Assembly (NCBI GenBank): GCA_041648895.1
Contig: JBAZOB010000001.1
Span: forward strand, 15,093-79,092
Reading direction: 5' to 3'
DNA: 64,000 nucleotides
DNA from: Patescibacteria group bacterium
Lineage (GTDB): Bacteria; Patescibacteriota; JAHJAL01
A model generated the notes under the pieces. The model saw nothing but the letters and a program-made list of their open reading frames with translations, was not told where the DNA came from and did not search any database. Positions within the stretch are counted from its first letter, which is position 1. The number at the start of each line of letters is the position of its first letter. Made by a program: the position numbers and the translations under genes. Shown one piece after another: positions 34,210 through 54,437 of this stretch.

Positions 34210-34283
34210 TCCGGAGTAGCTCAGCTGGTTAGAGCGACTGACTGTTAATCAGTAGGTCGTGGGTTCGAGTCCCACCTCCGGAG
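34210..34283 (+). tRNA. tRNA-Asn (anticodon GTT); no encoded CCA.
   Basis: Hand fold: acceptor TCCGGAG/CTCCGGA, D-arm GCTC-AGCTGGTTA-GAGC, anticodon stem ACTGA/TCAGT with loop CTGTTAA, T-arm GTGGG-TTCGAGT-CCCAC. Confidence 0.8.
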
Positions 34284-35768
34284 TTTGTAAGAACACTCTT
34301 TAGCCTGCAGAAGAAGGTCGAAGGGTGTTTTTAGTTTGTAGATTATGTTTTCGTCTTTCAGTTGTAAGTTCGAAAATACGAATTTGAGTAATTGCCGTTT
34401 TTTGTCTATTTCCGAACTTTTGGCAAAAATTTGAGGAGCTTTGGAACAGACATTTAGTAGAAAGGTAACTGATTTTACGAATTTTTCATCAGCCTCAGTA
34501 TGATCTTTCATAGACTGAGTAATTTCATATTGTCTATTTTTTAAATCTTTGGCTTTTTTGTCATATTCATCTTGAGTAATACTCCTATTAATACAGAGGT
34601 CCAAGAGTGTATCAAGAGAGGTTTGAATTTTGGTGTATTCGGTTTGAAGTTCGGTAATACTATTTTTATGGTATTCAATTTTGGCTTGGTGAGTTTGGTT
34701 AACTTGATTAATTAGATCGGCGAGGATATCGTCCGGAATAACTAATAAATCGAGTATTTTATTGATTTGTTTTAATAATTGCTTTTCTTCCATTCTTTTG
34801 GCTCCGTGTTTGCCTTTTGATTCGGTACATTTGAGATAGATATATTTATTTTTCTTTTTGTCTGATGAGATAGCACATCCACAATCAGCACATTCAATCA
34901 TTCCTCGACCTAAAACTGAAGCATGGATAGTGGACCATTTGAAGGGTTTTTTGTGATAACCTTGGATAACATCCTGACAGCGATCAAATAATTCTTTAGT
35001 AATTAGATTACCGTGATTGTGCGGTGCTATATTTTCTTTAACTTTCATCATTCCGTAATAAAACGGATTGGTAATGACATGGTTTAACCGACTGTGGGAT
35101 AAATAATTATAGGGAGGTTTGTTGTTGGTAAGACCTTTCTTTTTCATTAAATTTGCTAATCCGCGGATGGAATAACTGCCGGTAGCATATAGGTTGAATA
35201 TTTCTTGGACCAAATACGCTCTTTGTTTGTCTATAATAATAATTTTTCTTTTTGTGATTGGGTCTTCTTCATTTAGATAACCAATTGGTGCTTTAGTTAG
35301 CCATTCGCCACGTTTGATTTTTCCTTCGAATGCGCGTTTGACGTTGTCGCTTATTGCATCGGAATAGTATTTGGCTAGTCCAAGATTCATGGCGAAATGA
35401 AATTTTTCAACGGCGGATATATTGGAATTAATAACAAGGTTATCTGAAACAAAGTGCATTTCAATTTTATCCAACATTGTCATCTCGTACAGGTTGGATA
35501 TTCTTTTATCAAAAACATTTCGGGAAAATCTATCAACTTTATCAAAACAAATTACTAATTTTTCTTTTGATTTTTTGATGTAATCAATCATTTTGTCAAA
35601 ATCATCTCTTTTGTTTCGATATGCTCCTTCGTCAAAACTGTATTGTTTAACGATGGGGAGGTCTTTTTTTTGACAATATTTAATCATCCGATCAGTTTGA
35701 GCTGGTAGGGAATTACCAGCGTCTTTTTGCTCTTCGGTTGATACTCTGGCTAATATTATGGCTTTCAT
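34245..35768 (-). CDS. Large serine recombinase (resolvase catalytic domain, recombinase domain, zinc ribbon); integrase of the downstream island. The 3' end overlaps tRNA-Asn.
   Basis: N-terminal MKAIILARVSTEEQ...SLPAQ (catalytic Ser). FDKVDRFSRNV. Zn ribbon CADCGCAIS...C. The last roughly 13 codons run through the tRNA-Asn 3' half on the opposite strand. Confidence 0.75.
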   Translation of the reverse strand: MKAIILARVSTEEQKDAGNSLPAQTDRMIKYCQKKDLPIVKQYSFDEGAYRNKRDDFDKMIDYIKKSKEKLVICFDKVDRFSRNVFDKRISNLYEMTMLDKIEMHFVSDNLVINSNISAVEKFHFAMNLGLAKYYSDAISDNVKRAFEGKIKRGEWLTKAPIGYLNEEDPITKRKIIIIDKQRAYLVQEIFNLYATGSYSIRGLANLMKKKGLTNNKPPYNYLSHSRLNHVITNPFYYGMMKVKENIAPHNHGNLITKELFDRCQDVIQGYHKKPFKWSTIHASVLGRGMIECADCGCAISSDKKKNKYIYLKCTESKGKHGAKRMEEKQLLKQINKILDLLVIPDDILADLINQVNQTHQAKIEYHKNSITELQTEYTKIQTSLDTLLDLCINRSITQDEYDKKAKDLKNRQYEITQSMKDHTEADEKFVKSVTFLLNVCSKAPQIFAKSSEIDKKRQLLKFVFSNLQLKDENIIYKLKTPFDLLLQAKECSYKLRRWDSNPRPTD

Positions 35769-35866
35769 TTGGTAAAAAAGTGATTATTGTTATAAAATTG
35801 AAGTAGTGTTTATAATCTAATGTTATCAAATGTTATCATATTTATCAAAAATGAGATAAAAATATT

Positions 35867-36076
35867 ATGGATAAAAAAATAGACAATGATGTGAATCCGG
35901 AAATGTCAAAATTACTTACTTTGAAGCAGGCTTGTGAGATATTGCAATGTCATCCCAATACTTTGAGGCAGTGGGATAAAAAGGGCATATTGAAAGCGAT
36001 AAGAATTGGTATTAAAAAAGCGAGAAGGTATAGGAGAGAGGATATAGAGGAGTTTATTAATAAGAAGTATGATTAA
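35867..36076 (+). CDS. Excisionase/AlpA-like helix-turn-helix DNA-binding protein.
   Basis: LLTLKQACEILQCHPNTLRQWDKKGILKAIRIG is a MerR/excisionase-type HTH in a 69-aa protein next to the integrase. Confidence 0.55.
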   Translation: MDKKIDNDVNPEMSKLLTLKQACEILQCHPNTLRQWDKKGILKAIRIGIKKARRYRREDIEEFINKKYD

Positions 36077-36130
36077 TTGTTCGATTTTTTAATACTGGTT
36101 TGATATAAATATGTATTAGCTAAAGATGTA

Positions 36131-39100
36131 ATGAATAAAGTATTAGATAACAAAAAATCCAAGGTATCGGATGTATTGCTGGCGGAAATAAAAGATAAAG
36201 CCAAATTATCTGTCATTTCAGCATATTTTACTATCTATGCATTTGAAAAACTGAAGAAATCTTTGTCGAAGATTGATTCTTTGCGATTCCTTTTTGTTGA
36301 GCCAACTTTCACTAAAGAGCAGGAAGAAACACGGGAATTTTATATCGATAAACTTGATCGTGAGAAACAATTGTCCGGAACTCAGTACGAGATCAAATTG
36401 AGAAATGAATTGACTCAGTCAAAAGTGGCCAAAGAGTGTGCTGATTGGATTAGAAGCAAAGTGGATTTTCGATCGTTGAAGAAGTCTGATTTGTCTCGGG
36501 CGAGAGCGATTCATGTACAAAATCCGGATTCGGAATTTATAGTACAAGGAACACTTGATTTTACTTCTTCCGGATTGGGTTTTTCCAATTCAAACAAATT
36601 GGAGATGAATGTTTATTCTGATGATCAGGATGCGACGCGTGAGATGCTCACTTGGTTTGACGAAATTTGGAATGATGAAATGCTAGTGGAAGATGTAAAA
36701 GAGGAGGTACTCAAAAGTATCCAGACGATATATAAAGAAAATACGCCGGAATTCATATATTATGTAACTTTGTATAACTTGTTTAAGGAGTATCTGGATG
36801 AATTGACGGAAGAAAATATCATCAAGGTGAAAACCGGAGTTAAGGATTCAATCATCTGGAAGAAGTTATTCAAATTTCAGAAAGATGGTGTAATGGGAGT
36901 TATTGATAAGTTGGAGAAGCATAACGGTTGTATTCTGGCAGATAGTGTTGGATTGGGTAAGACCTTTGAAGGATTGGCGGTAATAAAATACTATGAATTG
37001 AGAAATTATCGAGTATTGGTCCTTTGTCCGAAGAAGTTACGAGATAACTGGATGATGTATCGGTCAAATGATGTGCGGAATATTTTTGCAGAAGATCGGT
37101 TTGGGTATGATATTTTGAATCATACTGATTTGAGTAGGGAAAAAGGAATGTCCGGGGATATTAATCTGGAGACAATTAATTGGGGTAATTATGATTTGGT
37201 TTTGATTGATGAGTCACATAATTTCAGAAATAATGATTCCTTAAAAAACAAGAAAACAAGATATAGGAAGTTGATGGATGATATTATCCGGACCGGGGTA
37301 AAGACTAAGGTATTGATGTTGTCAGCTACGCCGGTAAATAACAGGATGAATGATTTGAAGAATCAAATTGCTTTTATTACTGAAGGTAATGATGAAGCGT
37401 TGTTGGATGAAGGGGTGAAGAATATAGGTAATACTTTTAGGTTGGCGCAATATCAATTCAATAAGTGGTTAGATCGGCCTCTGAATGACAGGGGGCTGGA
37501 CTCTTTGTTGGCTAGTTTGAATGTTGACTACTTTAAGTTATTAGATGCGTTGACTATAGCTCGATCCCGGAAGCATATCGAAAAATATTATGATTTGTCG
37601 GAAGTGGGCCGTTTTCCTGATCGACTTAAGCCGTTGAATATTAAATCAAAGGTGGATTTGAAAGGTGATTTTCCCAGTTTTGAAGATATAAACGATTCGA
37701 TTAAAAGGTTGTCGATGGCGATATATTCACCTTTGCAGTATGTCAGGTCGGACCGGGTGAAGAAATATCAGAAGAAATATGATCGAGAGGTTAAGGGTGG
37801 ATCTTATTTTCGGCAGACAGATCGAGAGAAAAATATTGTTAATCTAATGCGGGTAAATATTTTGAAGAGATTAGAAAGCTCGATTTTTTCATATAATCTG
37901 ACATTGACTAGACTAGCGGGTAAGATAGAAGAAATATTGCAAATGATTGATGATTTTCATGATTCTGGTAGATATAGTTTGGATTTAGATGATGCACCGG
38001 AGAGTATTGATGGAGATGATGAACAGTTGGAATCAATGACGGTTGGTAACAAGATTAGTGTAGAGTTGGCCGATATGGATCTGATCCGATGGAAAGATGA
38101 TTTGCAGTCTGATTTAACCAGATTGAAAGATTTGATAAGTTTTGCGGAGCCAATTAATACAGATTCTGATGCTAAACTGGCAGATTTGAAGAAAATAATT
38201 GCTGATAAAATTAGCAATCCGATTAATGATAATAATAAGAAGGTGGTGGTTTTCAGTGCTTTTTCTGATACGGCGGAGTATTTGTATAAATACATTTCCG
38301 AATGGTTGGAAAATAAATTTAACCTACATTCAGCTTTGGTAACTGGTGGCACTACTAATAAAACAACTTCTGACGAGATTAAAACTGATTTGAATAGTAT
38401 TTTGACTAATTTTTCGCCGGTATCAAAAGAAAAGGCAAAAGTTTTTCCGGGAGTGAAAGATGAAATTGATGTTTTGATTGCAACGGATTGCGTATCAGAA
38501 GGCCAGAATTTGCAAGATTGTGATTATTTAATAAACTATGACATCCATTGGAATCCGGTGCGGATTATCCAGCGTTTTGGGCGTATTGATCGAATTGGGT
38601 CCGTTAATGAAAAAATTCAACTGGTTAATTTTTGGCCGGATATGGAGCTGGATGAATATATTAATTTGGAACAACGGGTCCGAGGGCGGATGATATTACT
38701 TAATGCCAGCGCGACGGGTGAAGAGGACATTATCAATGAAACTGATAAAGATGTGATGAATGATATCGAGTATCGTAAGAATCAATTGACCAGATTGCAG
38801 GAGGAGGTTTTGGACCTGGAGGATATTTCGGGGAATATTTCGATTACAGATATGACTATGAGTGATTTTAAGATGGATTTGATGGAGTATCTCAAAGATA
38901 ATCGTGAATTATTGGAAAGATCGGCGCTTGGTATGTATGCGATTGTGTCAAAGGATGAGTCTTTGGAAGATTTGTCGTCGGGGGTGATATTTACCTTGCG
39001 ACAGGTGGATTTTTCAGAAGCGAAATCTGGAGAGACAAATGCGATTCATCCATATTATATGGTCTATATTGGTGATAATGGAGAGGTAAAATTGACTTAT

Positions 39101-39385
39101 TTGCAGGCCAAGTATGTGCTGGATATATTCAAAAAACTTTGCAATGGTAATAATCTGGTTCATCGAGATTTGGTAGAATTGTTTGATAAAGAGACTCAAG
39201 AAGCCAAAGACATGTCAAAATATTCAGATTTATTGAGGCAGTCAATTGAGCATATTATCGGAGAGAAGCAAGAAAAAGGGATTGAAGATATTTTCAGCAG
39301 TCTGGGAAAGACAAATATTGCCAAAGATGCCTCGTTGTCGTGGATTGATGATTTTGAGTTGATTTCATTTTTGATTATCAAATAG
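36131..39385 (+). CDS. SNF2-family helicase with a roughly 230-aa N-terminal non-catalytic domain.
   Basis: Motif I ILADSVGLGKT. Motif II LVLIDESHNFRN. Motif III LMLSATPVNN. Helicase-C motif VI QRFGRIDRIGS. Confidence 0.8.
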   Translation: MNKVLDNKKSKVSDVLLAEIKDKAKLSVISAYFTIYAFEKLKKSLSKIDSLRFLFVEPTFTKEQEETREFYIDKLDREKQLSGTQYEIKLRNELTQSKVAKECADWIRSKVDFRSLKKSDLSRARAIHVQNPDSEFIVQGTLDFTSSGLGFSNSNKLEMNVYSDDQDATREMLTWFDEIWNDEMLVEDVKEEVLKSIQTIYKENTPEFIYYVTLYNLFKEYLDELTEENIIKVKTGVKDSIIWKKLFKFQKDGVMGVIDKLEKHNGCILADSVGLGKTFEGLAVIKYYELRNYRVLVLCPKKLRDNWMMYRSNDVRNIFAEDRFGYDILNHTDLSREKGMSGDINLETINWGNYDLVLIDESHNFRNNDSLKNKKTRYRKLMDDIIRTGVKTKVLMLSATPVNNRMNDLKNQIAFITEGNDEALLDEGVKNIGNTFRLAQYQFNKWLDRPLNDRGLDSLLASLNVDYFKLLDALTIARSRKHIEKYYDLSEVGRFPDRLKPLNIKSKVDLKGDFPSFEDINDSIKRLSMAIYSPLQYVRSDRVKKYQKKYDREVKGGSYFRQTDREKNIVNLMRVNILKRLESSIFSYNLTLTRLAGKIEEILQMIDDFHDSGRYSLDLDDAPESIDGDDEQLESMTVGNKISVELADMDLIRWKDDLQSDLTRLKDLISFAEPINTDSDAKLADLKKIIADKISNPINDNNKKVVVFSAFSDTAEYLYKYISEWLENKFNLHSALVTGGTTNKTTSDEIKTDLNSILTNFSPVSKEKAKVFPGVKDEIDVLIATDCVSEGQNLQDCDYLINYDIHWNPVRIIQRFGRIDRIGSVNEKIQLVNFWPDMELDEYINLEQRVRGRMILLNASATGEEDIINETDKDVMNDIEYRKNQLTRLQEEVLDLEDISGNISITDMTMSDFKMDLMEYLKDNRELLERSALGMYAIVSKDESLEDLSSGVIFTLRQVDFSEAKSGETNAIHPYYMVYIGDNGEVKLTYLQAKYVLDIFKKLCNGNNLVHRDLVELFDKETQEAKDMSKYSDLLRQSIEHIIGEKQEKGIEDIFSSLGKTNIAKDASLSWIDDFELISFLIIK

Positions 39386-39386
39386 G

Positions 39387-40163
39387 ATGAAGGAACAAGT
39401 AATACAATTGATGGGATTGAGGCGGGACAAGATTTTGCAGGACAAAAAAATTGCCAAGACCAAGTTTTATGAGCTGGATGATTTTGATAACGGAAAGAAA
39501 AAGATATTTACAGATGAGATTGTAGATATTACTTTGTTGGCGATTCTCAATGAAGAAACGATCAATATTGCATCTTATAAAGATAATGAAGTGAATTATA
39601 GTGAAGTGTATGTTGTCTATGTAGAATTGAAGAAGAATCAAAATATAGGCAAGATTGTTGAGAGTATTCAGAAGAATATTATCAATCCGGTGATTGTGGT
39701 GTTTGGTTGGCAGGATCGCATTTGTTTGGCGACAGCGCGTAAAAGATTGAGTTTGAATGAAAAAGGTAAACAGGTAGTGGAAAGTGAGCAGATGACAGAT
39801 TGGTTGTCTTTGTCGGATCAAACACAGCCGGTGCGGGATTACTTGATGGGACTGGATATTGCCAATTTTTCTTTTCTGAATTTGTATGAGTTTTATCGGG
39901 AATATTCTTTGTATGTTTATCAATCGGTTTTGATGCAATTTGAATCCGGTTTTCATTTCCGCAAGCAGTTGGTGATTGATCAGATCAAGCCGGAGATTGA
40001 GCTATGTGTGGCAAAAAGTGTTGAGGTCAAACGATTGCAGGATGAAGAGAAAATGGCGATCAATTTTGGGGACCGGATTGCGGTTCATCAGAAGTTGATT
40101 GAGGCGCAAAAGGAAGAGGTGGAAGTTAGGGAAAATATTAAGAAAAAATTAATAAATACTTAA
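39387..40163 (+). CDS. Hypothetical protein, possibly DUF4391-like, translationally coupled between the SNF2 helicase and the methyltransferase.
   Basis: Start is 1 nt after the helicase stop. 258 aa with no catalytic motifs. The family assignment is from memory of gene-neighbourhood associations only. Confidence 0.4.
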   Translation: MKEQVIQLMGLRRDKILQDKKIAKTKFYELDDFDNGKKKIFTDEIVDITLLAILNEETINIASYKDNEVNYSEVYVVYVELKKNQNIGKIVESIQKNIINPVIVVFGWQDRICLATARKRLSLNEKGKQVVESEQMTDWLSLSDQTQPVRDYLMGLDIANFSFLNLYEFYREYSLYVYQSVLMQFESGFHFRKQLVIDQIKPEIELCVAKSVEVKRLQDEEKMAINFGDRIAVHQKLIEAQKEEVEVRENIKKKLINT

Positions 40164-40187
40164 GTTGGATTTGATAAAATTATAACT

Positions 40188-42089
40188 ATGAAAAAAATTG
40201 ACGGTAAAACAAGTGATTTGATTGCAGAAAATATCGAGAAGTTGAAACAACTTTTTCCGGAGATTTGGGAAGAGGGGAAAGTTGATTTGGAAATGTTGAA
40301 GAAGTTATTGGGTGAGAAAGTGGAGACGGATCGAGAGCGATATTGTTTTTCTTGGCATGGCAAGTCGGATGCAATCAAGATGGCTTTGAAGCAATCGACG
40401 GGGACTTTGAGGCCAAAGAAGGCGGATAGTAAAGATTGGGACAAGACGAATAATCTGTATATTGAGGGTGATAATCTGGAGGTGTTGCGGGTGTTGCAGG
40501 ATAGTTATCGGGGTAAAGTAAAAATGATATATATCGACCCCCCTTACAACACAGGGAAGGATTTTGTGTATGAGGATAATTTTGCGGATAATATCCAGAA
40601 TTACAAGGAAAAGGTGGGAGATACGATGAAAGCCAATGCGGATTCGAGTGGGCGAAAGCATACCAATTGGCTCAATATGATGTATCCGAGGTTAAGGTTG
40701 GCGAGGAATTTGCTTAAGGATGATGGAGTGATATTTATATCGATTGATGATAATGAGCAGGCGAATTTGAAGAAGGTTTGTGATGAGATTTTTGGGGAGG
40801 AGAATTTTATAGAAAATTATATTTGGGAAAGTACTTTTCGTCCGGATAATAGTTCTTCAATTGAACGAAAAAATGCTCAGTATGTTACTAGTTTTGCAAA
40901 GGATAAAAATTTAATTAATCAATTAATTGGTGGTCCAAAAAAAACTGAAGGACTTCCTTCATTAACTAAGAATTCAATGAAGGAGGGAATTCTAAATTTT
41001 CCGTCTAATACAGTTAAAATATTGTTTAATGATGGTATATATTTAGCGGGTAAGAAGGATTCGGGATACGAGCTTCTTGATAATGTTGAGGTAGTTTCGG
41101 GAGTAAATTTGAATTCATTTAGATTAAAAGGTCGTATGATATGGAGTCAAGATTATCTCGAGAATGAATTGAACAATGGTACTGAGATTATTTTTAAAGG
41201 AGAAAATTTTGTCCCATATTCAAAAAAATTAGAAGTGGGAATTTTGGCTCCAACAAAGATTATACCTAAAGATTATGTACAGGATGTGCTTGCTGGACGT
41301 GCAGAATTAAAATCAATTTTGGGACAATCAATATTTGATTATCCCAAGCCTTTGTCTTTGATTAATTATTTGCTTAGCTTTCTTGAGTGTGAAGAAGAAT
41401 GTATTGTTTTAGATTTCTTTTCAGGTTCGGCAACGACTGCCCATTCGGTGATGCAGTTGAATGCGGAGGATGGGGGGAATAGGAAGTTTGTTATGGTCCA
41501 GTTGCCGGAGGTTACGCAGGAAGATAGTGAGGCGAGGAAGGCGGGGTATAAAAATATTTGTGAGATTGGGAAGGAGAGGATTAGACGGGCGGGGGAGAAG
41601 ATTGTGAAGGAGTTGAAGGAGAAGCAAGATAAAAAACAGGAAAAATTGATTGAAGGTGGGGAGAAGGTGGTGAATCCGGATGATTTGGATGTTGGGTTCA
41701 AGGTGTTTGAGTTGGATGAGACCAATTTTACGAAGTGGGATCCAAATACGCAGGATGTCGAGAAGTCGATGATGGACCAATTGACACCGATCAAAGCAGA
41801 TCGAGCGGATGAGGATGCGGTTTATGAGATTATGTTGAAATATGGAGTTGATTTGACGATGCCGATTGAGGAGTTGAAATTGGCGGGGAAGAAAGTATTT
41901 TCTTTGGCTGGAAATTATTTGTTGCTATGTTTGGAAAAGCAGATTGGTTTGGAGACGGTTGGCGAGATGGCAAAACTGAGTCCGCATCGAGTAGTTTTCT
42001 TTGATGATGGATTTGCGGATGATACAGTCAAAGCCAATGCGGAGCAGACTTTGAAGAAGGCGGGGGTTGAGGAGATATTGGTAATCTAA
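40188..42089 (+). CDS. N6-adenine/N4-cytosine DNA methyltransferase, type III Mod-like, of the beta-class N6_N4_Mtase family.
   Basis: Motif IV IYIDPPYNTGKDF precedes motif I LDFFSGSATTAHS (beta-class order). 633 aa. Confidence 0.8.
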   Translation: MKKIDGKTSDLIAENIEKLKQLFPEIWEEGKVDLEMLKKLLGEKVETDRERYCFSWHGKSDAIKMALKQSTGTLRPKKADSKDWDKTNNLYIEGDNLEVLRVLQDSYRGKVKMIYIDPPYNTGKDFVYEDNFADNIQNYKEKVGDTMKANADSSGRKHTNWLNMMYPRLRLARNLLKDDGVIFISIDDNEQANLKKVCDEIFGEENFIENYIWESTFRPDNSSSIERKNAQYVTSFAKDKNLINQLIGGPKKTEGLPSLTKNSMKEGILNFPSNTVKILFNDGIYLAGKKDSGYELLDNVEVVSGVNLNSFRLKGRMIWSQDYLENELNNGTEIIFKGENFVPYSKKLEVGILAPTKIIPKDYVQDVLAGRAELKSILGQSIFDYPKPLSLINYLLSFLECEEECIVLDFFSGSATTAHSVMQLNAEDGGNRKFVMVQLPEVTQEDSEARKAGYKNICEIGKERIRRAGEKIVKELKEKQDKKQEKLIEGGEKVVNPDDLDVGFKVFELDETNFTKWDPNTQDVEKSMMDQLTPIKADRADEDAVYEIMLKYGVDLTMPIEELKLAGKKVFSLAGNYLLLCLEKQIGLETVGEMAKLSPHRVVFFDDGFADDTVKANAEQTLKKAGVEEILVI

Positions 42090-42201
42090 GTTAGTTATAG
42101 ACTGCACAAACTAAAACTAAAAATAACAAAGAAATTAGGTATTTTTTGATTTCATATCTGTTACAAGACTACACAGACTAAAGTCGACTAAACAATTTAT
42201 A

Positions 42202-45200
42202 ATGACAAAATTAAAATTACAATTTGATGCCAATCAGGAATTTCAAAAACAAGCTGTGGATGCGATAGTTGATGTTTTTGACGGGCAACCTTTGAAGCAA
42301 TCAAAGTTTACGGTATCAGTGGCGGATGGTTCGTTGTTTGGTAAAAATACGGAGTTGGGGTATGCCAACAAATTGGATTTGATGCCGGAAGATTTGTTGA
42401 AAAATGTGATCAAGATTCAGGACCGGAATCATTTGAAAAGAAGTGAGGGTTTGTTGGATGCGGATTATGGAGTGCCAAACTTTGCGATTGAGATGGAGAC
42501 GGGGACTGGCAAGACTTATGTATATACGCGGACTATATTGGAATTGAATAATAAATACGGTTTTACCAAGTTTATCGTCGTGGTCCCAAGTGTGGCTATC
42601 CGTGAAGGCGTGAATAAATCTTTGGATATTACCAAGGATCATTTTGAAGAGTTGTATCAAGGGCAGAAGTTTAATTATTTTGTATATAATTCAGATCGTT
42701 TGACGGAAGTGCGCAATTTTGCGACCAGTGATTCAATCGAAATCATGGTTATCAATATTGATGCATTTCGCAAAGGATTTGAAGAGGACAACAAGAGTAA
42801 CAAGAATGCGACAAGGATACACAAAGAACAGGATAAGTTGGAAGGACGACGGCCGATTGAATTTATCCGTGATACCAATCCAATTGTGATTATTGATGAG
42901 CCACAGTCGGTTGATAATACCGAGAAATCCAAAGAGGCAATCAAGGCGCTCAATCCAATGTGTATCGTGCGGTATTCGGCTACTCATAGAAATACCTATA
43001 ATTTGATGTATCGACTTGGTCCGATCGAGGCTTATGAAAATAAATTGGTAAAAAAGATTGAGGTGGTAGCGGTGGAAGGAATGGGCAGTGGTCCATATAT
43101 GAAGCTGGAAAAAGTACAAAAAGCGCCTAATGGATCTTATTCGGCGGATGTGGTTTTGAGCGTGTTGGATAAAAAAGGCGAAGCGAAAATAAAGAGAGTA
43201 AAAATCAATACCGGTAAGCGTAAGAGTTTTTTTGATGTGTCCGGACAAAATGAGATATACAAAAATTATGTGGTGACAAATATCAGTATTGAATCCGGAA
43301 TGGAATATATTGAGTTTGAGACGGGTGATATCTTGAAGCTGAATCAAAATACAGATGATTTGGAAATTAAGCGTACTCAAATCAGGTCCACAATCGAATC
43401 ACATTTGGAAAAGGAATTGAGATTGTTGGATAAAAATATCAAAGTTTTGTCACTTTTCTTTTTGGATCGAGTAAATAATTATCGGGAATATCTTAATGAA
43501 GGTGGATTCAAGAAGGGAAAATACGCGCAGATTTTTGAGGAAGAATATGTGAAGATAATTAAATTGCCAAAATATAATCAACTTTTTGTAACTGAAAAAT
43601 CCAAACAATATGCTTTGTGTGAGGATGTTGACAAAATTCATGATGGATATTTTGCGCAGGATAAGAAGGGTGTATTCAAAGAATCGCGAGGCGAGGGTTC
43701 GAGTCAAGCTGATGAGAGTGCGTATGATTTGATCATGAAAGAAAAAGAGACACTATTGAGTTTTGATACTCCATTGAGATTTATTTTTTCGCATTCAGCT
43801 TTGAAAGAAGGTTGGGACAATCCAAATGTGTTTCAGATTTGTACCTTGGTGGAGAGTGCAGACACCATGACCAAAAGGCAGAAGGTGGGGCGGGGTTTGC
43901 GGTTGCCGGTCAATCAATCCGGAGAAAGAATATTTGATGACAATATCAATATTTTGACGGTGGTGGCCAATGAGAGTTTTCAGAGTTTTGCTGAGAATTT
44001 GCAAAGAGAGATTGAAAAGGATACCAATACCAAATTTGGAGTAGTGGAAGAGCGATTGTTTGAGAATATTTTGTTTGAAAAAGAAGGTAAGGTCGGAGAG
44101 TTGGGTTATAAAGAGTCAAAAGAAATTTGTGAGTATTTGAGAGAGCAAGGTCTGGTGGACAAAAATGGTAAAGTGAAGGACGAATTGAGACAAATAGTGG
44201 CTCGGGAAGAAAGTGGCGAAGATGCCTTGGTTTTGCCAATGAAGTTTGTACCAATCAAAAAGAAAATAGTGGAACAGATAAAGACAACATTGAAACGATT
44301 GCCAATAGTAGATAGCAAAAAGAAAGAAAAGGTATCGATCAATAAGCAGGTGTTTTTGAGTGATGATTTCGTTGAATTGTGGAATAGGATCAAATACAAG
44401 ACTGTCTATAAGTTGGACTTTAATAGTGCAACATTGATTGAGAATTGTATTCATGAGGTCCGAAAGATGCCGGAAATTAGGTCCAATGCGATCGTGGCGC
44501 GCTGGATTGATTTGCAGATTGACAAGAGGGGCGTGACATTCGATGAACCAAAAAAGATTCGTGATTATGTGCGTGAAAAATATGACCAAAAGCAGTTGCC
44601 GGATATTTTGCGTTTTATTGCCACTTATACAGGACTTAAAAAAAGATCGATCGCGGATATCTTGCTAAGGTCCCAGACCATAGATGCTTTTTATATCAAT
44701 CCGCAGGAATATATGGAGCAAGTGATTCAGATAATCAATATTGAGAAAAGAAAGCTGATTGTGGACGGTATTAAATATGACAAGATTGGTGACGATGTTT
44801 TTTATCAACAAGAATTGTTTGAAAATGAAGAGTTGATTGGTTATCTCAAGGACAATGCTATTCAGGTAGAAAAGAGTGTTTATTCTCATGTGATTTATGA
44901 TTCGGATATTGAGATGACTTTTGCCGAAAGACTGGAAAATGATGTTGATGTAAAACTTTACGCCAAATTACCTGATTGGTTTAAAATTGAAACTCCATTG
45001 GGTGATTACAATCCGGATTGGGCGATATTGTTGGAAAAGAATGGAGTTGAGAAGTTGTATTTTGTGATCGAGACAAAGGGGTCTATTTTGTCGGAAGATT
45101 TGCGACCGATAGAGCAGGGAAAGATAGAGTGCGGGCAGAAGCATTTTAAAGCGCTAGGGACCGGAGTGAAGTTTGAGAAGGTGAGAAGTTATGAGGAGTG

Positions 45201-45219
45201 GCGAGGCATAATTAGATAA
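42202..45219 (+). CDS. Type III restriction enzyme Res subunit: SF2 helicase domain plus C-terminal PD-(D/E)xK nuclease.
   Basis: Motif I METGTGKTYV. Motif II VIIDEPQS. C-terminal YNPDWAILLE...YFVIETKG nuclease motif. 1005 aa. Confidence 0.8.
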   Translation: MTKLKLQFDANQEFQKQAVDAIVDVFDGQPLKQSKFTVSVADGSLFGKNTELGYANKLDLMPEDLLKNVIKIQDRNHLKRSEGLLDADYGVPNFAIEMETGTGKTYVYTRTILELNNKYGFTKFIVVVPSVAIREGVNKSLDITKDHFEELYQGQKFNYFVYNSDRLTEVRNFATSDSIEIMVINIDAFRKGFEEDNKSNKNATRIHKEQDKLEGRRPIEFIRDTNPIVIIDEPQSVDNTEKSKEAIKALNPMCIVRYSATHRNTYNLMYRLGPIEAYENKLVKKIEVVAVEGMGSGPYMKLEKVQKAPNGSYSADVVLSVLDKKGEAKIKRVKINTGKRKSFFDVSGQNEIYKNYVVTNISIESGMEYIEFETGDILKLNQNTDDLEIKRTQIRSTIESHLEKELRLLDKNIKVLSLFFLDRVNNYREYLNEGGFKKGKYAQIFEEEYVKIIKLPKYNQLFVTEKSKQYALCEDVDKIHDGYFAQDKKGVFKESRGEGSSQADESAYDLIMKEKETLLSFDTPLRFIFSHSALKEGWDNPNVFQICTLVESADTMTKRQKVGRGLRLPVNQSGERIFDDNINILTVVANESFQSFAENLQREIEKDTNTKFGVVEERLFENILFEKEGKVGELGYKESKEICEYLREQGLVDKNGKVKDELRQIVAREESGEDALVLPMKFVPIKKKIVEQIKTTLKRLPIVDSKKKEKVSINKQVFLSDDFVELWNRIKYKTVYKLDFNSATLIENCIHEVRKMPEIRSNAIVARWIDLQIDKRGVTFDEPKKIRDYVREKYDQKQLPDILRFIATYTGLKKRSIADILLRSQTIDAFYINPQEYMEQVIQIINIEKRKLIVDGIKYDKIGDDVFYQQELFENEELIGYLKDNAIQVEKSVYSHVIYDSDIEMTFAERLENDVDVKLYAKLPDWFKIETPLGDYNPDWAILLEKNGVEKLYFVIETKGSILSEDLRPIEQGKIECGQKHFKALGTGVKFEKVRSYEEWRGIIR

Positions 45220-45363
45220 TAAAATACCATATTAGTCAACTAAATATTAAAACATAATGTTTAGGTATTGCATAGGTTTATATGGTTTGTTAAAATAATA
45301 ATAGAGTATCAAAAATTATAGTAGATTTTTGGATGATGCTCTTATTATTATTTTTTTTGTGAG

Positions 45364-46479
45364 GTGATTATGGTAAAAAGAGGTTATCGTATTTATAAGT
45401 TAAAAAAGTGGCCGGAAGACAGAGAATGGAAACATATTTTTGTTGCTGAGGTAGCATTAAAGAAAGGTCGAAAAAAGAAAGTTGAAGTGAAAATGTTTCG
45501 TAAAGATGATAACTCTAATGTTTTTAATTTTGAGTTAGAACAAGGATCTGGTAATAGTTGGAATTTAGTGGAAAAAGAAAAACAAAAGAAAAATACAAAA
45601 TGGTTTGATGCGTTTTTCGGTCCAAATTTTGTGCATGTTTATAAACATATTTCTAAGCAGGTGTATGTAATAAGTGTTGAGGATTCATGTCCTGATGCTA
45701 ATGATGATTTTTTATTGTTAGGAAATTATATTGTATTTAGTGATGAGATGAGTAGGAAAGACATTGATAATGAGATCAAGAAGTTAAATTGTGTGGTTAG
45801 GGGTCAAGTTAATTTTTATGATGTTGTTATGATTAAGAATTATAGTTTTTACGGGAAAAAAATAAGAGCGAATGATTGTTTTAAGATAACTGGTTCGAAG
45901 GGTCAATCAACAAGAAGGTTTGTGGATTCTGTCACTAATTACCTTTATCCAGCCGAAGTTGATTATTTAACATATAAATATCTTATGCAAAAAAATGAAT
46001 TGGTTTTACCGGCTTTAGTACATTATCAGCAAGCTATTGAGAAGTATTTCAAGTTTTTTAGTTGGTATTTTTATAATATAGAACCTACAACCGGTGCGGA
46101 TACTCATAAATTTGAGAAAGTTATCGAGGGAACTGATTTGGGAGATGTAATTCCTATAAAGACAAAGGAAATTTTTAAGGAAATTTGTGATGAGTTTTAT
46201 GGTTATCGTTATTATAATGGGAAATTAAAGCCTAAAAAGATAGAAGAAATAGAAAATGCTTTGGATGATTTTGTTTGTGAGTTTTGGGTATTACTTATGA
46301 GTTCAATATTTCCGTATCATTATAAAATATTTAGGTCGGCTGGGTATTCTCATGCAATATTGTTGCCGAGAATTTACCAGTCTAATGGCAAATTGAGAGA
46401 GAAATATTTACATATAGTAAAGAGGAATAATGCGCATTTTGAGAAAATGGGGAAATTATTTAAGAAAAGTAAATTTTGA
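45364..46479 (+). CDS. Hypothetical protein.
   Basis: 371-aa ORF in the AT-rich island; no motif recognised. Confidence 0.4.
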   Translation: MIMVKRGYRIYKLKKWPEDREWKHIFVAEVALKKGRKKKVEVKMFRKDDNSNVFNFELEQGSGNSWNLVEKEKQKKNTKWFDAFFGPNFVHVYKHISKQVYVISVEDSCPDANDDFLLLGNYIVFSDEMSRKDIDNEIKKLNCVVRGQVNFYDVVMIKNYSFYGKKIRANDCFKITGSKGQSTRRFVDSVTNYLYPAEVDYLTYKYLMQKNELVLPALVHYQQAIEKYFKFFSWYFYNIEPTTGADTHKFEKVIEGTDLGDVIPIKTKEIFKEICDEFYGYRYYNGKLKPKKIEEIENALDDFVCEFWVLLMSSIFPYHYKIFRSAGYSHAILLPRIYQSNGKLREKYLHIVKRNNAHFEKMGKLFKKSKF

Positions 46480-46488
46480 GGAGTTAGT

Positions 46489-46806
46489 ATGAATGATGAA
46501 GAGCTGATTTTGAAGGTTTTATACGAAAAACCCAATAAACCAGAAAATGTTGTTAAAAGTAAGCATGTTAAATTTGAAGAGTTGAAGATTGCATATTTTG
46601 ATGATGATAATGTGCCGGATTCCAAATTGCCGGATTATGAGAACAGAATAAATTCATTATTGGATGATTTGAGAGAACTCAAAGAGAGAAGCTTAATTGA
46701 ATTTGTAGGTGGCACAAATGCAGTTGAGCCACTTAATATCTTTATTACTGAAAAAGGGAAAGAATACTATGTTGAAATGTATAGGAATGAAAATCATGAC
46801 GAATAG
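46489..46806 (+). CDS. Hypothetical protein.
   Basis: 105-aa ORF tightly following the previous gene. Confidence 0.35.
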   Translation: MNDEELILKVLYEKPNKPENVVKSKHVKFEELKIAYFDDDNVPDSKLPDYENRINSLLDDLRELKERSLIEFVGGTNAVEPLNIFITEKGKEYYVEMYRNENHDE

Positions 46807-46818
46807 ATAGTATTAAGA

Positions 46819-47964
46819 CTATTCTATTTTAAGATCTGTAATTTTTGTTGGTATAAATTCATTTAATCGCTTTCTTATATCAATTAACAGATTATATTTA
46901 CTGTTTTCGGGGATGTGGAGTTTGAAAATTTTTCTTTTCAGTCTGTACCAATAGCTATGATCGGGGCCGGAATCAATAATATTTCTCAGCCGATCATAAC
47001 TGCCGGAATTTATGGCCAAAATTACCGCGGATAATTCAAGTAAATCGCGGTTTTTTAATTTGGGGTTGTTTTGCCTGATGGTTTCAATGGTCTCGATGGC
47101 GGATTTGTCTTGGAGTAATAGGATTGCTTTGTTTTCGGTGAGTATGGACCAGTAGTAAAGCAGGATTTTTTGAGAGATTGACTGACTGAATAGTTGTTTG
47201 AAGCTTAATTCGGTTCTGATATTGATTTTTTTGAATATTGATTTGATTTTGGAGGTCTTATTTAACCTGATTTCCAGCCGGAGGATGTTGCGGTGTTTGG
47301 GTTGGTTTAATTCATCTAACAGATTAAGCTGGATGGAATTGTCATTTTCAATTGATCGCTTGTCGGATATTTTAGCCAGTCCCAATTCTTTGATTTTGTC
47401 GTATATGGCTATTTCGTAGCTGTTGGCGTGATAATGAAGTGATTGTCCGCCGTTTTTGAAGCGCTCACGATTGGCTTCGAGTCGTGGTAGGGGATTCAAT
47501 TTGGCAAGGTCGGATATGATCATCGAGGGGGTGGTGTGGTATGGGAGAGGGACGTTTTTTGAATAGTGGATGGAGGTAATCGGGGCGTTGTCGAGTTGGA
47601 TATCGAATAATTCAACTCCCATTTCTTTTAGTGTTTTTTGAAGATGGTCATGGATTTTCTGATAGTCATTGTCTGTTAATTCATCGAAGTTGTTATTGAA
47701 TAGTAATTTTGGCAATGATAATTCAATCCGGAGTTTGGGAATTATACCAAATTGACCCATGACAACGATCAAGGTTAGGCGTGGTTTGTAAATTCCGGCT
47801 GATAATTCTCTTTTGCTTGGATTTTGGGTAGCTTTGATATATTCGCGCGGTTTCATATTGTTGGCTTGGTCCCAGAATCTTTTTTCTGATTTGATTGAGA
47901 ACTTACTCCAATCCCAAATTGAGAATTTACCGTGTGGCAATGTTATGACTGTTGTATCGATCAT
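46819..47964 (-). CDS. Hypothetical protein; the context near SpoVG-like suggests a plasmid/phage replication or partition function, but this is unsupported by motifs.
   Basis: 381-aa ORF. The start region overlaps the downstream SpoVG-like ORF by 38 nt, so the real start may be internal. Confidence 0.35.
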   Translation of the reverse strand: MIDTTVITLPHGKFSIWDWSKFSIKSEKRFWDQANNMKPREYIKATQNPSKRELSAGIYKPRLTLIVVMGQFGIIPKLRIELSLPKLLFNNNFDELTDNDYQKIHDHLQKTLKEMGVELFDIQLDNAPITSIHYSKNVPLPYHTTPSMIISDLAKLNPLPRLEANRERFKNGGQSLHYHANSYEIAIYDKIKELGLAKISDKRSIENDNSIQLNLLDELNQPKHRNILRLEIRLNKTSKIKSIFKKINIRTELSFKQLFSQSISQKILLYYWSILTENKAILLLQDKSAIETIETIRQNNPKLKNRDLLELSAVILAINSGSYDRLRNIIDSGPDHSYWYRLKRKIFKLHIPENSKYNLLIDIRKRLNEFIPTKITDLKIE

Positions 47965-48241
47965 CAGAATGCATTACTTTTTTATACTGCTTAATAATTG
48001 CTCGCTCGATCAGTGTGGATGTTTCTTTATTAATGGGGTGAAATAGTTGAATATGGTTATTGCTTACCTTTTTGGTGGGGTAGGTGAGACGATATCCGTC
48101 TTGGGTTAGTTTGCTGTGAATTCCGACCGAGCTGAGGTATATTTTGTTGTCCAATACAAAGCTGGCGAAGGCAAGCAGGCCATTATGGGGTTTGATCGGG
48201 ATTATTTGGATTTCCGTTACTTTGGTTGTTGCTTTTTTCAT
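47927..48241 (-). CDS. SpoVG-family nucleic-acid-binding protein.
   Basis: IQIIPIKPHNGLLAFASFVLDNKIYLSSVGIHSKLTQDGYRLTYPTKK...HIQLFHPINKETSTLIERAII matches the SpoVG pattern (I.V......GL.A.AS...D..F.V.D..V.....G.........DG.FR.....HPI...TR..I). Confidence 0.55.
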   Translation of the reverse strand: MKKATTKVTEIQIIPIKPHNGLLAFASFVLDNKIYLSSVGIHSKLTQDGYRLTYPTKKVSNNHIQLFHPINKETSTLIERAIIKQYKKVMHSDDRYNSHNIATR

Positions 48242-48464
48242 TATCTTGGTCCATCTCGATTAATAAATTGACATAGTTAAATAGATTTTCAAATGCATCT
48301 TCCGCCTCAGTTTCGTTGAGGTTGGGGAAATACTTATCGGCAAGTTGTCGGCGGTTTTCGGAGAGCATAAAAAAATCGACTTACTTAATTGCAAGTCGAT
48401 GATAATAAAGAAAAATTCTGAAACAGGCTATTTCTACTACTTCATAACAAATCTACTAAATCTA

Positions 48465-49196
48465 CTATTTTAAATCTTTAGTTGAGATAATGTTAATTTT
48501 GCTTTTATTGAGCTGTTCTTGGGTTATTGGATTAATAAATTGGATGCCTTCCGATGAGATATTGAAAAAGAGGTCTAGCAGTTTGCCTTTAAAGCCTAAG
48601 TCGTTAATTATTCCGTTAATAGTTCTGTTTTTATCCAGTTTAGTTTCTTTGATAACCTCTGAAGTTATTAATTCTTCGTTTTGATGCTGGAAGAGGTATT
48701 CAATGAGTCGATGCCCGTTTTTGTTGAAATCGGGTGTGCTTAATAAAATATTGTTTAAAGTTAGTTGGCGCGTATTATCGTTAAAGTCTATTTTATAAAT
48801 GACATTATCTAAATTTATGGGGTTTTGAGTAGGTTTTTGTTTAGTAAATTTCTTTTTTAGTTTGTTATGAAGGATATCAAAATTTGATAATAACATCAGT
48901 TCATAACCATCTGAATCTCTAAAGATAAAATTACGATCATGAGGTCTGCCATTTCCATCAAATGAAGTTATCGTGTTTTCGTGAGAATTGGCTAATGTTA
49001 ATGCGTTAGTAGTGTATCTTGAAACCAGTTTAGCAACTTTGAAATCAATAATAAGTTTGGAAATAATTGGTTGAAACAGTCTTGGCTCTATGGTGGTATT
49101 GTCAGGTTCAATTCTTACAATTTCATTTTTTGGAGTTATTTTTGATAGCTCATGTAATTCTGATACAATTAACCACATTTTTTCTTCGTAGTTCAT
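48465..49196 (-). CDS. Hypothetical protein.
   Basis: 243-aa ORF divergent from the ATPase gene across an extremely AT-rich spacer. Confidence 0.4.
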   Translation of the reverse strand: MNYEEKMWLIVSELHELSKITPKNEIVRIEPDNTTIEPRLFQPIISKLIIDFKVAKLVSRYTTNALTLANSHENTITSFDGNGRPHDRNFIFRDSDGYELMLLSNFDILHNKLKKKFTKQKPTQNPINLDNVIYKIDFNDNTRQLTLNNILLSTPDFNKNGHRLIEYLFQHQNEELITSEVIKETKLDKNRTINGIINDLGFKGKLLDLFFNISSEGIQFINPITQEQLNKSKINIISTKDLK

Positions 49197-49343
49197 AATA
49201 CATTACTTTTTTATATATATAAAATTCACATCGATTATATTTTTTGATATCCATAACAATTATATCTTATAAATCATTCATTATGATATATAAATAATAA
49301 ATATGATATTATATATATAGATTAAATCTATTTATATATTAGT

Positions 49344-50702: not shown

Positions 50703-50868
50703 GTGAATATCATTTGACGTAAAGGTGTTTGTGATAGTCGATATATTAATATAATATCTGAATAGTATTTAGTTCGAAACATGTCAATAAGGGGGAGTTT
50801 CGTTTTGAAAGCACGCTGATGAGGCGTGTTTTTGGTATAATTAAACAAATAAAATTAATATTCTGGTA
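50703..50868. repeat. Conserved intergenic module, copy 0, upstream of the radical SAM gene: hairpin TTTGAAAGCACGCTGATGAGGCGTGTTTTTGGTATAATTAAAC.
   Basis: The CACGC-N7-GCGTG hairpin, T-run and TATAAT recur before most genes between 50.7 and 57.9 kb. Confidence 0.6.
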
Positions 50869-51885: not shown

Positions 51886-52115
51886 CTAGTGAGCAAGGGT
51901 GTGGGGTCCTTCGGCAGGCTCAGGATAAATAACTAAGCTGTAACCATAAAACAGGTTCGAACATCGTGTATTGCACGGAGTTTTGGTAAAATTACGAACT
52001 AGTGATAATTTTTGAAAGCACGCTTATTGGGCGTGTTTTGGTTTGTTTGCTATATGTTTTTGGAAAATAATGAAATATAATATTAGTAGGCTGGTGTATT
52101 CTTATTCATTTAATA
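51886..52115. repeat. Conserved intergenic module, copy 1: AGTGAG..GGTGTGGGGT box, GGTTCGAACATCGTGTATTGCACGGAGTTTT box, then the GAAAGCACGCT..GGCGTGTTTT hairpin.
   Basis: Aligns block-by-block with 52914-53074, 53702-53934 and 55715-55896. Confidence 0.7.
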
Positions 52116-52913: not shown

Positions 52914-53074
52914 TATAGTGAGTGAAGGTGTGGGGTAACTAAGCCGTAACTAACAAAGTGGTTCTAACTTCGTGTATTCACGCGGAGTTTTTGACACGAA
53001 GCTCGAACCTTATTTGGTCCGGGTTTTTTAGTATAATAAATTGGTAAGAGTTGTTTATTGTTAATGCAAAATAG
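52914..53074. repeat. Conserved intergenic module, copy 2: AGTGAGTGAAGGTGTGGGGT ... GGTTCTAACTTCGTGTATTCACGCGGAGTTTTTGACACGAAGCTCGAACC ... TTTTTTAGTATAATAAATTGG.
   Basis: Contains the inverted repeat ACTTCGTGT/GACACGAAG flanking ATTCACGCGGAGTTTTT. Confidence 0.7.
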
Positions 53075-54290: not shown

Positions 54291-54437
54291 GAAAACAAAA
54301 ATAGTTTAGAGATAGTTAAGCCACTATTGAGTAAATTGTCTGAGGATTATCAGAAAGTTTTGGATGACAATTTTGTGGGTTTCTATGTCTTTGGATTTGG
54401 TTGGAAGATGTTTGTGCCATGAATGAATCTGTAGTGG

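Follow-up and report, generated by a model that had tools for sequence, protein, structure and literature searches.

A 16.5-kb integrative element with a large serine recombinase gene that probably entered the very end of a tRNA-Asn gene in a Patescibacteria group bacterium

Serine integrases, tRNA genes and the locus in comparison

Insertion at the 3' end of a tRNA gene is the canonical layout of integrative elements that are driven by tyrosine integrases. In a computational survey, 1333 of the 2998 islands with tyrosine integrases (Y-Ints) were located in tRNA or tmRNA (t(m)RNA) genes versus 14 of the 297 islands with serine integrases (S-Ints), and the use of t(m)RNA genes by the latter, which "has not been reported previously", was regarded as being in need of proof (Mageeney et al. 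2020, PMC7192596). The tycheposon study also describes a minority of elements with large serine recombinases and contains no tRNA-site analysis for them. A literature search, which covered few subscription papers, retrieved no relevant report linking a serine recombinase, a tRNA and Patescibacteria or the candidate phyla radiation (CPR). Here, we describe a locus from a Patescibacteria group bacterium (assembly GCA_041648895.1, contig JBAZOB010000001.1, positions 15,093 to 79,092; this whole stretch of 64,000 nucleotides is called the window) in which the gene of a large serine recombinase (LSR) ends inside a tRNA-Asn gene. Very probably, the LSR belongs to a 16.5-kb integrative element (~34282-50796) that was inserted by its own recombinase into the very end of the tRNA gene (Table 1). 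An earlier note on this DNA had recognised the integrated element and its use of the tRNA 3' end as attB, and both ends have now been mapped; the arrangement that it called canonical is canonical for tyrosine integrases and not for serine integrases.

The closest described systems each share some of the features of the locus. Like the large serine integrases of phages and integrative and conjugative elements (phiC31, Bxb1, A118/LI, TP901-1, SprA), the LSR combines Resolvase, Recombinase and zinc-ribbon domains, and, in its deduced sites, attP spans about 48 bp, the outer motif is shifted inward by 5 bp in attB, the central dinucleotide is non-palindromic and the junctions show almost no duplication; moreover, a small accessory protein is likely needed for excision. 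In contrast to these integrases, the LSR has its site not in a protein-coding gene but at a tRNA 3' end, where the T-loop provides the outer motif. In addition, the 3' coding end of the recombinase gene contains both the P' half-site and a terminator that replaces that of the tRNA, and the element carries a putative rolling-circle Rep gene and no phage or conjugation genes, its relatives in IMG/VR reaching at most 29% identity. Islands with tyrosine integrases (P4-like, Islander-type) have in common with the locus that the integrase gene adjoins the tRNA, that the tRNA receives the insertion in its 3' part and is restored, and that defence genes are carried as cargo. However, their recombinases belong to another superfamily with another chemistry, and they duplicate a tRNA fragment of 15 to more than 60 nt, whereas the repeat is 5-10 nt here. 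Indeed, the locus lacks the tyrosine recombinase next to the tRNA and the direct repeat of a tRNA 3' fragment by which Islander-type islands are defined.

Staphylococcal cassette chromosome mec (SCCmec) elements are also mobilised by large serine recombinases (CcrAB/CcrC), use the 3' end of a conserved housekeeping gene, rlmH, and grow into composite islands by tandem accretion, which includes recombinase-less segments bounded by att repeats. They differ from the locus in the target gene, the number of recombinase genes, of which there is only one here, and the host, and accretion is only a possible reading of the Patescibacteria locus. CcrB, CcrC and CcrA are among the best NCBIfam matches of the LSR (E 8e-22 to 4e-15), but with scores of 77.5, 73.2 and 56 bits, where the cut-offs are 900, 900 and 700, it falls outside these families. 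An attachment site inside the recombinase gene, with the result that integration alters the C-terminus of the protein, is known from Mx8 intP/attP and from SSV1-type integrases, which are tyrosine recombinases; in the LSR, the change is confined to a non-conserved tail (13 aa versus 33 aa). Finally, the integrative mobilizable elements of Firmicutes that combine a serine recombinase with a Rep_trans-type relaxase or initiator are similarly compact, carry cargo without a transfer apparatus of their own and encode a protein of the fold proposed for the putative Rep here. By contrast, the latter is recognised by its fold and not by its sequence, the host phylum and the target differ, and neither an oriT nor a helper is known for the element. 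What is unusual at the locus is the tRNA 3' end as attB, the T-loop as the recognised motif and the 3' end of the recombinase gene as half-site and terminator, all within the standard site logic of serine integrases.

Table 1. Features of the element, its attachment sites and the adjoining tract (positions in the window)
Feature	Position	Strand	Basis
Host tRNA-Asn(GTT)	34210-34283	+	ARAGORN
attL core GGAGT	34280-34284	+	Identity between the window, L010 and L008 copies stops there
P' arm (TTGTAAGAACACTC-TTTAGCC), hairpin and U5	34285-34333	+	Inside the last ~30 LSR codons
LSR gene, 507 aa in the integrated state	35768->34245	-	Pfam, family alignment, PHROG
HTH_17 small DNA-binding protein, 69 aa	35867-36076	+	PF12728 (E 3.9e-14), MerR-type; PHROG 'excisionase and transcriptional regulator'
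HKD-SNF2 helicase	36131-39385	+	Pfam; PADLOC C3a139 HKD+Snf2 (E 7e-142)
DUF4391 protein	39387-40163	+	Pfam
Type III methyltransferase	40188-42089	+	Pfam; PADLOC MTase_III (E 1e-200)
Type III restriction enzyme	42202-45219	+	Pfam; PADLOC REase_III (E 0)
Two backbone open reading frames, 371 aa and 105 aa	45364-46806	+	No family matches; partly conserved in L173
Putative Rep_trans-like rolling-circle replication initiator, 381 aa, hallmark backbone gene	46819-47964	-	Fold search
SpoVG-like protein	47927-48241	-	Pfam SpoVG (E 4e-9); conserved in L173
Backbone open reading frame, 243 aa	48465-49196	-	Conserved in L173
P-loop ATPase with C-terminal winged helix, 452 aa, variable right-end cargo	49344-50702	+	AAA_16/ATPase_2/HTH_24, all below cut-off
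attR (module M1): P arm ...TAGTTCGAAACATGTCAATAAGGG and core GGAGT (50794-50798)	50755-50798	+	L173 match, P-arm profile
B' side of the target at the time of arrival: tRNA trailer and hairpin terminator (GAAAGCACGC..GGCGTGTTTTT)	50799-50836	+	Fold, attB reconstruction
Radical SAM gene, weakly viperin-like	50869-51885	+	
Modules M2-M6	GGAG at 51977, 52984, 53843, 54183, 55784		
Amidohydrolase	52116-52913	+	
DUF3800 protein	53075-53701	+	PADLOC PDC-M04A
Open reading frame, 73 aa	53935-54156	+	
Open reading frame, 89 aa	54438-54707	-	
APH-like kinase	54878-55714	+	

Recombinase, element ends and attachment sites

The LSR gene and the tRNA-Asn gene overlap by 39 nt (34245-34283) in the 3' half of the tRNA, as the earlier note had seen. 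Read in antisense, tRNA nt 36-73 (the acceptor strand, the T-arm and the 3' strand of the anticodon stem) provide the last 13 codons of the LSR gene (KLRRWDSNPRPTD), and TTA in the anticodon loop provides its stop codon. Judged by its domains and residues, the 507-aa protein is a large serine recombinase and is predicted to catalyse recombination between attP and attB. It contains a Resolvase domain (PF00239, E 1.6e-18, residues 3-156) and a Recombinase domain (PF07508, E 7.5e-13), and its best PHROG match is PHROG 95 'integrase' (E 2e-63). The residues R8, S10, D79, R80 and R83 are invariant in an alignment of 23 family members, as are Cys293, Cys296 and Cys314 in the family alignment, in which Cys298 is nearly invariant (at least 90%); a stretch of about 100 residues (335-440) follows the zinc ribbon.

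The left end could be located by comparison with relatives that were found through LSR homologues. In L010, an LSR and element of 94% identity abut another tRNA-Asn, which deviates from that of the window at about 7 of 55 positions, and in L007, L008 and L009, an LSR of 81% identity (P0002) lies beside a NUDIX gene with no tRNA nearby. On the LSR-sense strand, the window, L010 and L008 share ...GAGTGTTC(T/G)TACAAACTCC, up to ...ACAAACTCC, and then diverge into GGAGGTGGGACTCGAACC (the tRNA) in the window, GGGGGTGGGTTTCGAACC in L010 and AAGATTTATCCACAAAG in L008. Therefore, the element ends at GGAG 34280-34283 of the + strand (tRNA nt 70-73).

The right end was mapped with L173, which extends the L008 contig through its type III enzyme (P0121) and thus holds an 81%-identical copy at a non-tRNA site in another genome. 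The window and L173 have the genes for the LSR, HTH_17, HKD-SNF2, DUF4391, the methyltransferase (MTase) and the restriction enzyme (REase), two open reading frames (ORFs), a 381/395-aa ORF (-), the SpoVG-like protein (-) and a 243/238-aa ORF (-) in common order. DNA homology continues through the backbone up to position 49214 of the window, where a variable slot begins, and resumes for 48 nt with 89.6% identity (window 50751-50798, L173 17428-17475). This stretch reads TAGTATTTAGTTCGAAACATGTCAAT(A/G)AGGGGGAGT, and the loci diverge after GGAGT. Moreover, a P-arm profile that had been built without the window sequence ranked 50771-50797 first in the window, with two of the att-like modules described below in second (M3) and third (M2) place. 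The right boundary, which had been considered undetermined and was to be sought also past 64 kb, is thus located inside the window at 50794-50798, and position 49343 marks none: the element extends to 50798, the foreign tract to about 55788.

The junctions read ...CCCACCTCC-GGAGT-TTGTAAGAACAC (attL) and ...CAATAAGGG-GGAGT-TTCGTTTTGAAAGCACGC (attR) in the window, and ...GGATAAATCTT-GGAGT-TTGTACGAACAC (attL of L008) and ...CAATGAGGG-GGAGT-GCTTTTTTTAAG (attR of L173) in the relative. GGAGT is the only repeat common to both junctions (34280-34284 and 50794-50798; GGAGTTT in the window copy). It was found in two independent insertions, and the identity extends over 6-10 nt in L036, L039 and L017; identities of this length in related loci are CGGAGC, GGGAGCCA and GGGAGCAAGT. 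A search for direct repeats of at least 15 nt, which the earlier note had proposed, found nothing and was bound to fail because the junctions share only GGAGT; both this search and the idea that a missing att repeat would speak against an element presuppose a duplication of the tyrosine type. In agreement with the earlier note, the window contains no other copy of the tRNA 3' end GGGTTCGAGTCCCACCTCCGGAG (23 nt, up to 3 mismatches), and the longest k-mers shared with it (11-12 nt) are at chance level. The G+C content changes from 0.431 (1-34209) to 0.350 (34285-50798) and 0.339 (50799-55788) and then to 0.409 (55789-64000). Lower-GC DNA downstream of the tRNA had been correctly reported, but the tract comprises 21.5 kb and not 15 kb.

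Joining the element ends yields the attP site TAGTTCGAAACATGTCAATAAGGG-GGAG-TTTGTAAGAACACTCTTTAGCC, an imperfect 48-bp dyad TCGAAA-N14-GGAG-N14-CTTTAG that is centred between G and A of GGAG; the distance to GGAG is 14 nt both for TCGAAA on the left and for CTTTAG (complement of CTAAAG) on the right. The left arm of attB is formed by the T-loop, T-stem and acceptor 3' strand of the tRNA (34263-34283) and has the structure TCGAGT-N9-GGAG. Here, the T-loop motif TCGAGT (34265-34270) lies 9 nt before GGAG (34280-34283) and thus 5 bp nearer to the centre than the motif in attP. In structures of the A118/LI integrase with DNA, the motif contacted by the zinc ribbon is likewise about 5 bp nearer to the centre in attB than in attP half-sites, and the deduced sites fit this offset of the serine integrases. 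A serine integrase requires a core of only 2 nt, and the crossover dinucleotide would be GA at 34281-34282 (tRNA nt 71-72). In the reconstructed attB, the tRNA-Asn gene is succeeded by TTCGTTTT and by a terminator hairpin (-13.9 kcal/mol, z -3.2), and the predicted sequences across the junctions are CCCACCTCCGGAGTTTCGTTTTGAAAGCACGC for attB and ATGTCAATAAGGGGGAGTTTGTAAGAACACTC for attP. In the integrated state, the tRNA is followed by a hairpin of the element (fold of 34284-34340, -21.7 kcal/mol, z -4.3) and UUUUU. The P' region is free of gaps in an alignment of 37 loci.

From this architecture, the following course of events can be proposed. LSR dimers would bind the 48-bp attP, whose P' half is the 3' end of the LSR gene itself, and an attB in which the T-loop, T-stem and acceptor strand of the tRNA serve as the left arm, and the strands would be exchanged at the central GA. 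Insertion would restore the tRNA base for base and supply it with a new trailer and terminator hairpin, which replace its own terminator. The LSR reading frame would then run into the antisense of the tRNA and stop in the anticodon loop (507 aa), while it would comprise 527 aa in the excised circle. Excision, probably assisted by the HTH_17 protein, might be followed by replication of the circle via the Rep_trans-like rolling-circle initiator.

The C-terminal tails of the recombinases bear on this model. The integrated form of the LSR ends with ...CSYKLRRWDSNPRPTD and the reconstructed excised form, which reads into the P arm, with ...CSYKLPLIDMFRTKYYSDIILIYRLSQTPLRQMIFT. Family members that do not adjoin a tRNA have tails of the form L(P/R)x(L/W)Dx(I/F/V)RT, which the tail of the excised form (..KLPLIDMFRTKYY) matches. 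'DSN'-type tails, in which DSN translates the antisense T-loop (GAY TCN AAY), occur in at least 51 of the 120 best homologues. Another 7 share with the excised form a '(I/F/V)RT' tail, which stems from that motif when it is shifted by 5 nt and out of phase (TTY CGN ACN). Most others stop directly after L-R-G or L-R-W, a pattern that results where TAG is provided by the T-stem, as in L016. The tails themselves are not conserved as protein and indicate which DNA lies past the core.

In the DNA that codes for the conserved LSR motif KTPFDTVL (alignment A4 columns 35-55; equivalent to window 34308-34328), part of the family has a CACCGT..ACGGTG hairpin followed by TTTT on the tRNA-sense strand. 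Compensatory changes occur at the pair 41-49 (GC 13, AU 7, CG 3), and 72% of the cells pair in comparison to 33-50% in slid controls. A universal terminator hairpin in this segment was rejected, as only part of the family has it, and it was kept as a tendency, which suggests dual coding of protein and tRNA terminator.

The association with tRNA genes extends to the family. At E <= 1e-10, homologues of the LSR number more than 3000, and those with a name belong mostly to Patescibacteria (Paceibacterota, Zambryskibacteria), a few being labelled Omnitrophica or Methanoculleus. A metagenome scan provided 80 related loci with 39-61% identity, about 15 of which are on contigs that end too early, leaving 65 that could be evaluated. 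A tRNA on the opposite strand overlaps the LSR stop codon in 39 of the 80 loci (24 Asn, 5 Glu, 3 Arg, 2 His, 2 Asp, 1 Trp, 1 Pro and 1 Ile), and five more loci adjoin a tRNA that ARAGORN missed because it is split by a group I intron (Rfam). The overlap of the LSR and tRNA-Asn genes is therefore not due to chance, and at least 44 of the 65 evaluable loci show the arrangement. In the Asn cases, the overlap is mostly 40-43 nt and the stop codon is in the same place. Matches to the P-arm profile were obtained on the expected strand only. In about 13 loci, an attR (TCCAATCNAAAGTTCTAAA..N..GGAGC(CA), then a hairpin terminator) lies 7.4-11 kb from the LSR/tRNA junction, and in 7 loci the P arm lies directly against the LSR end, which is the attP configuration. 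By its homologues, the LSR belongs to a large, mostly tRNA-targeting family that is centred on Patescibacteria. It is a tentative idea that the family reads generic tRNA features, with the outer half-site in the T-loop and the core at the acceptor/CCA end, and that cassettes accreted at the present locus; such recognition would explain the movement among at least eight tRNA species.

Some further observations concern the targets of the family. Group I introns (RF00028, 62-89 bits) were detected in the target tRNAs of L017 (10050-10313), L023 (4636-4879), L034 (9156-9363) and L061 (11549-11809), and LSR tails of the form ...PIGYTYP in several database proteins correspond to reading into such introns. 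In a subclade (L047, L059, L060, L042, L084, L035, L041, L056, L067 and L072), the P' arm (A/T)NNTTGACG(A/T)TC follows directly after the encoded CCA at tRNA-Arg, -Asp, -Pro and -Asn, which suggests that the target was switched between tRNA species while the arm on the element side was kept.

The locus and its more than 40 relatives represent a whole clade with readable tRNA sites of serine integrases. Such elements seem to be common in Patescibacteria and carry defence systems. Island finders keyed on tyrosine integrases or on repeats of tRNA fragments, such as Islander-style searches, will miss them because the junction repeat is only 5-10 nt long. Moreover, serine integrases are leading tools for genome engineering, and near-universal tRNA features, if recognised by such enzymes, could serve as ready-made landing sites.

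The low-GC tract beyond attR and competing readings

The tract 50799-55788 consists of short segments with one or two ORFs, each of which is closed by an att-like module that aligns with M1. The modules are composed of GTTC(G/T)AA, a spacer of 14-16 nt (13 in M6), GGAGT and a hairpin with a U-run to the right; they are confined to the low-GC tract and absent from the rest of the window. The pattern GTTCGAA-N8-22-GGAGTWT has 3 exact matches, while 0.02 are expected. M3 and M4 are 84% identical over 83 nt (52952-53034 and 53811-53893), bracket the DUF3800 gene and form dyads of roughly 48 bp that are centred on GGAG. M1, M2 and M6 have nearly identical terminators (TTTGAAAGCACGC...GGCGTGTTTT). 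In an independent Logan assembly of the same organism, the contig breaks exactly at the M3/M4 repeat (L011 starts at window position 53833). An integron was considered and rejected: no IntI is present, the modules have the form of LSR-type dyads, after which TATAAT-like sequences can be made out by eye, and only the layout of the array is reminiscent of an integron.

Each module resembles a P-type arm that is joined at GGAG to a tRNA trailer and terminator, a form that is expected if each segment once was the tRNA-proximal insert. It is possible, but far from established, that the array arose by SCC-like or integron-like accretion, in which five recombinase-less segments were inserted in turn between the tRNA and the previous arrival, each bringing its own replacement terminator for the tRNA, and the LSR element would be the latest arrival. 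A comparable, independent case may be L037 (10090-11620). There, tRNA-Asn and an LSR element are separated by a 1.4-kb segment without a recombinase gene; it faces the tRNA with a P'-like arm and abuts the LSR end with a P-like arm, as if a mini-element had entered an existing attL. To the right of M1-M6, no LSR remnants beyond about 20 nt were detected, and decay of full-length elements is not favoured for this reason. Accretion would extend the logic of SCCmec to a new target and phylum, namely cassette accretion by a serine recombinase on a CPR tRNA gene. The case for it is circumstantial: parts of the modules are also plausible as plain terminators, the scores of the window-independent profile are weak, no polymorphism was found by exact-protein look-ups, and canonical serine integrases are not known to use attL as a target.

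M2-M6 could instead be ordinary intergenic terminators or regulatory repeats without a recombination history, whose likeness to att sites is a coincidence, and this reading has a real, albeit lesser than even, chance of being correct. Indeed, each module follows a gene and has hairpins with U-runs, a terminator scanner calls part of the 'P arm' of M2 and M4 terminator-like, and M3 folds with a corresponding stem. The window-independent profile matches M2 and M3 weakly (E 1-3) and misses M4 and M5, and no such arrays were seen in the other loci except for a degenerate second site in L036. However, the six modules can be aligned with the verified right end M1 and with the P arms of other elements with hardly any gaps, and the common motif, spacer and GGAGT, their confinement to the low-GC tract and the roughly 48-bp dyads M3 and M4 speak against coincidence, as does the segment of L037 that is bounded by P'-like and P-like arms.

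It is improbable that the entire 21.5-kb low-GC tract (34282-55786) is a single element with M6 (GGAGT 55784-55788) as the true attR and M1-M5 as internal repeats. The G+C content stays low to about 55.8 kb and rises only afterwards, and M6 combines GGAGT with a P-type arm on its left and a terminator that hardly differs from the one after M1. However, the independent copy L173 ends at the equivalent of M1 and continues into unrelated DNA, the genes between M1 and M6 occur in none of the 80 related loci, unlike those for Rep, SpoVG and HTH_17, and M1 rather than M6 is the best match in the window to the P-arm profile of other elements. Host DNA most likely resumes after M6 (~55788), as the G+C content rises there.

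That the LSR is fixed, domesticated or decaying and merely abuts the tRNA, the island being immobile or having arrived by other means, is very improbable: no excision product or polymorphism was found and the arrangement is the same in the NCBI metagenome-assembled genome (MAG) and the Logan sample, but the ORF is full-length, none of the catalytic and zinc-binding residues that are invariant in the family is missing, copies of 94% and 81% identity lie in different genomic contexts, and the sites are intact at both ends.

Insertion of the 16.5-kb element by its own LSR has to be weighed against a number of weaker points. The match to Zn_ribbon_recom (PF13408) reaches 24.9 bits and is marginally below the cut-off of 25.3, the domain being present in most LSR homologues. 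The P and P' arms are only weakly alike, and an ungapped scan for an inverted copy of the P' arm gave no convincing match. The crossover dinucleotide was deduced from the dyad symmetry and not observed, and the first-ranked match of the window-independent profile at 50771-50797 is weak in absolute terms (E 0.088). The comparison with related genomes that had been suggested earlier located diverged copies of both ends, but no empty tRNA-Asn site: a search of genome contigs for the flanking MFS gene returned only relatives of 34-40% identity, and exact-protein look-ups with flanking and array genes yielded nothing but the same arrangement or contigs that break at repeats. A circular attP junction was not found and is absent from IMG/VR. 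Finally, the comparison copy L008/L173 occupies a non-tRNA site, which would be either an off-target event or a sign of looser specificity. Downstream of the NUDIX gene (L008 11485-11530, L173 17470-17530), this site keeps only TTTGTG-N9-GGAGT in comparison to TTCGAG-N10-GGAGT in the tRNA, and the 10-mer GTGGATAAAT is present on both sides of the reconstructed insertion site.

Gene content of the element and further observations

The defence, SpoVG-like and ATPase genes of the earlier note are present, and the SpoVG-like gene belongs to the backbone next to the Rep gene. By comparison with the relatives, the backbone consists of the genes for the LSR, the HTH_17 protein, the putative Rep_trans-like initiator and the SpoVG-like protein, and HKD-SNF2, DUF4391 and the type III restriction-modification genes are cargo. 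The HTH_17 gene is divergent from the LSR gene, and homologues were found by an iterative search in about 42 of the 80 related loci, several of them directly upstream of the LSR. The previous assignment as 'AlpA-type' was approximately right, the Pfam family being HTH_17 of the MerR type (PF12728), and the protein is a candidate directionality factor or regulator. The 381-aa Rep-like protein, which was not identified by sequence-level searches and owes its assignment to the fold search alone, is encoded in 38 of the 80 loci and the SpoVG-like protein in at least 14. The Rep-like protein corresponds to MFA4930281.1 (100% identity over the 345 aa annotated there), and the DnaG of the window, which is contained in the 135-kb ENA metagenome contig k141_1703301, is identical to MFA4930271.1. 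Both records bear the label 'MAG: Patescibacteria group bacterium', and the ten-step accession gap between DnaG and Rep fits the presence of the island in that MAG, too.

The block of HKD-SNF2, DUF4391, MTase and REase genes (36131-45219; L173 2214-13012) is 80-92% identical between the otherwise diverged elements, and L173 has an extra gene for a Schlafen/AlbA_2 ATPase between the MTase and REase genes. PADLOC has no model for DUF4391, and the literature searched gave no link of this family with SNF2 and defence. In the slot at the right end, L173 contains a SocA/Panacea gene pair and one ORF instead of the ATPase gene. Capsid, terminase and conjugation genes were not found with Pfam, PHROGs and NCBIfam, and the LSR is the only recombinase between 34.2 and 55.9 kb, where no tyrosine recombinase (Phage_integrase family) was detected. 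A prophage was rejected in view of the distant LSR relatives and the missing attP junction in IMG/VR. From its genes, the element is best described as an integrative, probably rolling-circle-replicating, plasmid-like island with a variable cargo slot near each end, because a Rep-like gene is present and capsid, terminase and conjugation genes were not found.

A few minor observations may be added. One of the related elements contains a LOOT RNA (RF03000, 69 bits; L061 1212-1330). A second tRNA gene (Ser-GGA, 23820-23906) is located 10 kb upstream of the tRNA-Asn gene and has neither an adjoining recombinase gene nor a change in composition. The GC skew is positive in every 1-kb interval of 1-64000 (0.08-0.50) and nearly all long ORFs are on the + strand, i.e. 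the whole window lies on one replichore with a very strong strand bias; the few long ORFs of the minus strand include those for the LSR, Rep, the SpoVG-like protein and the 243-aa protein.

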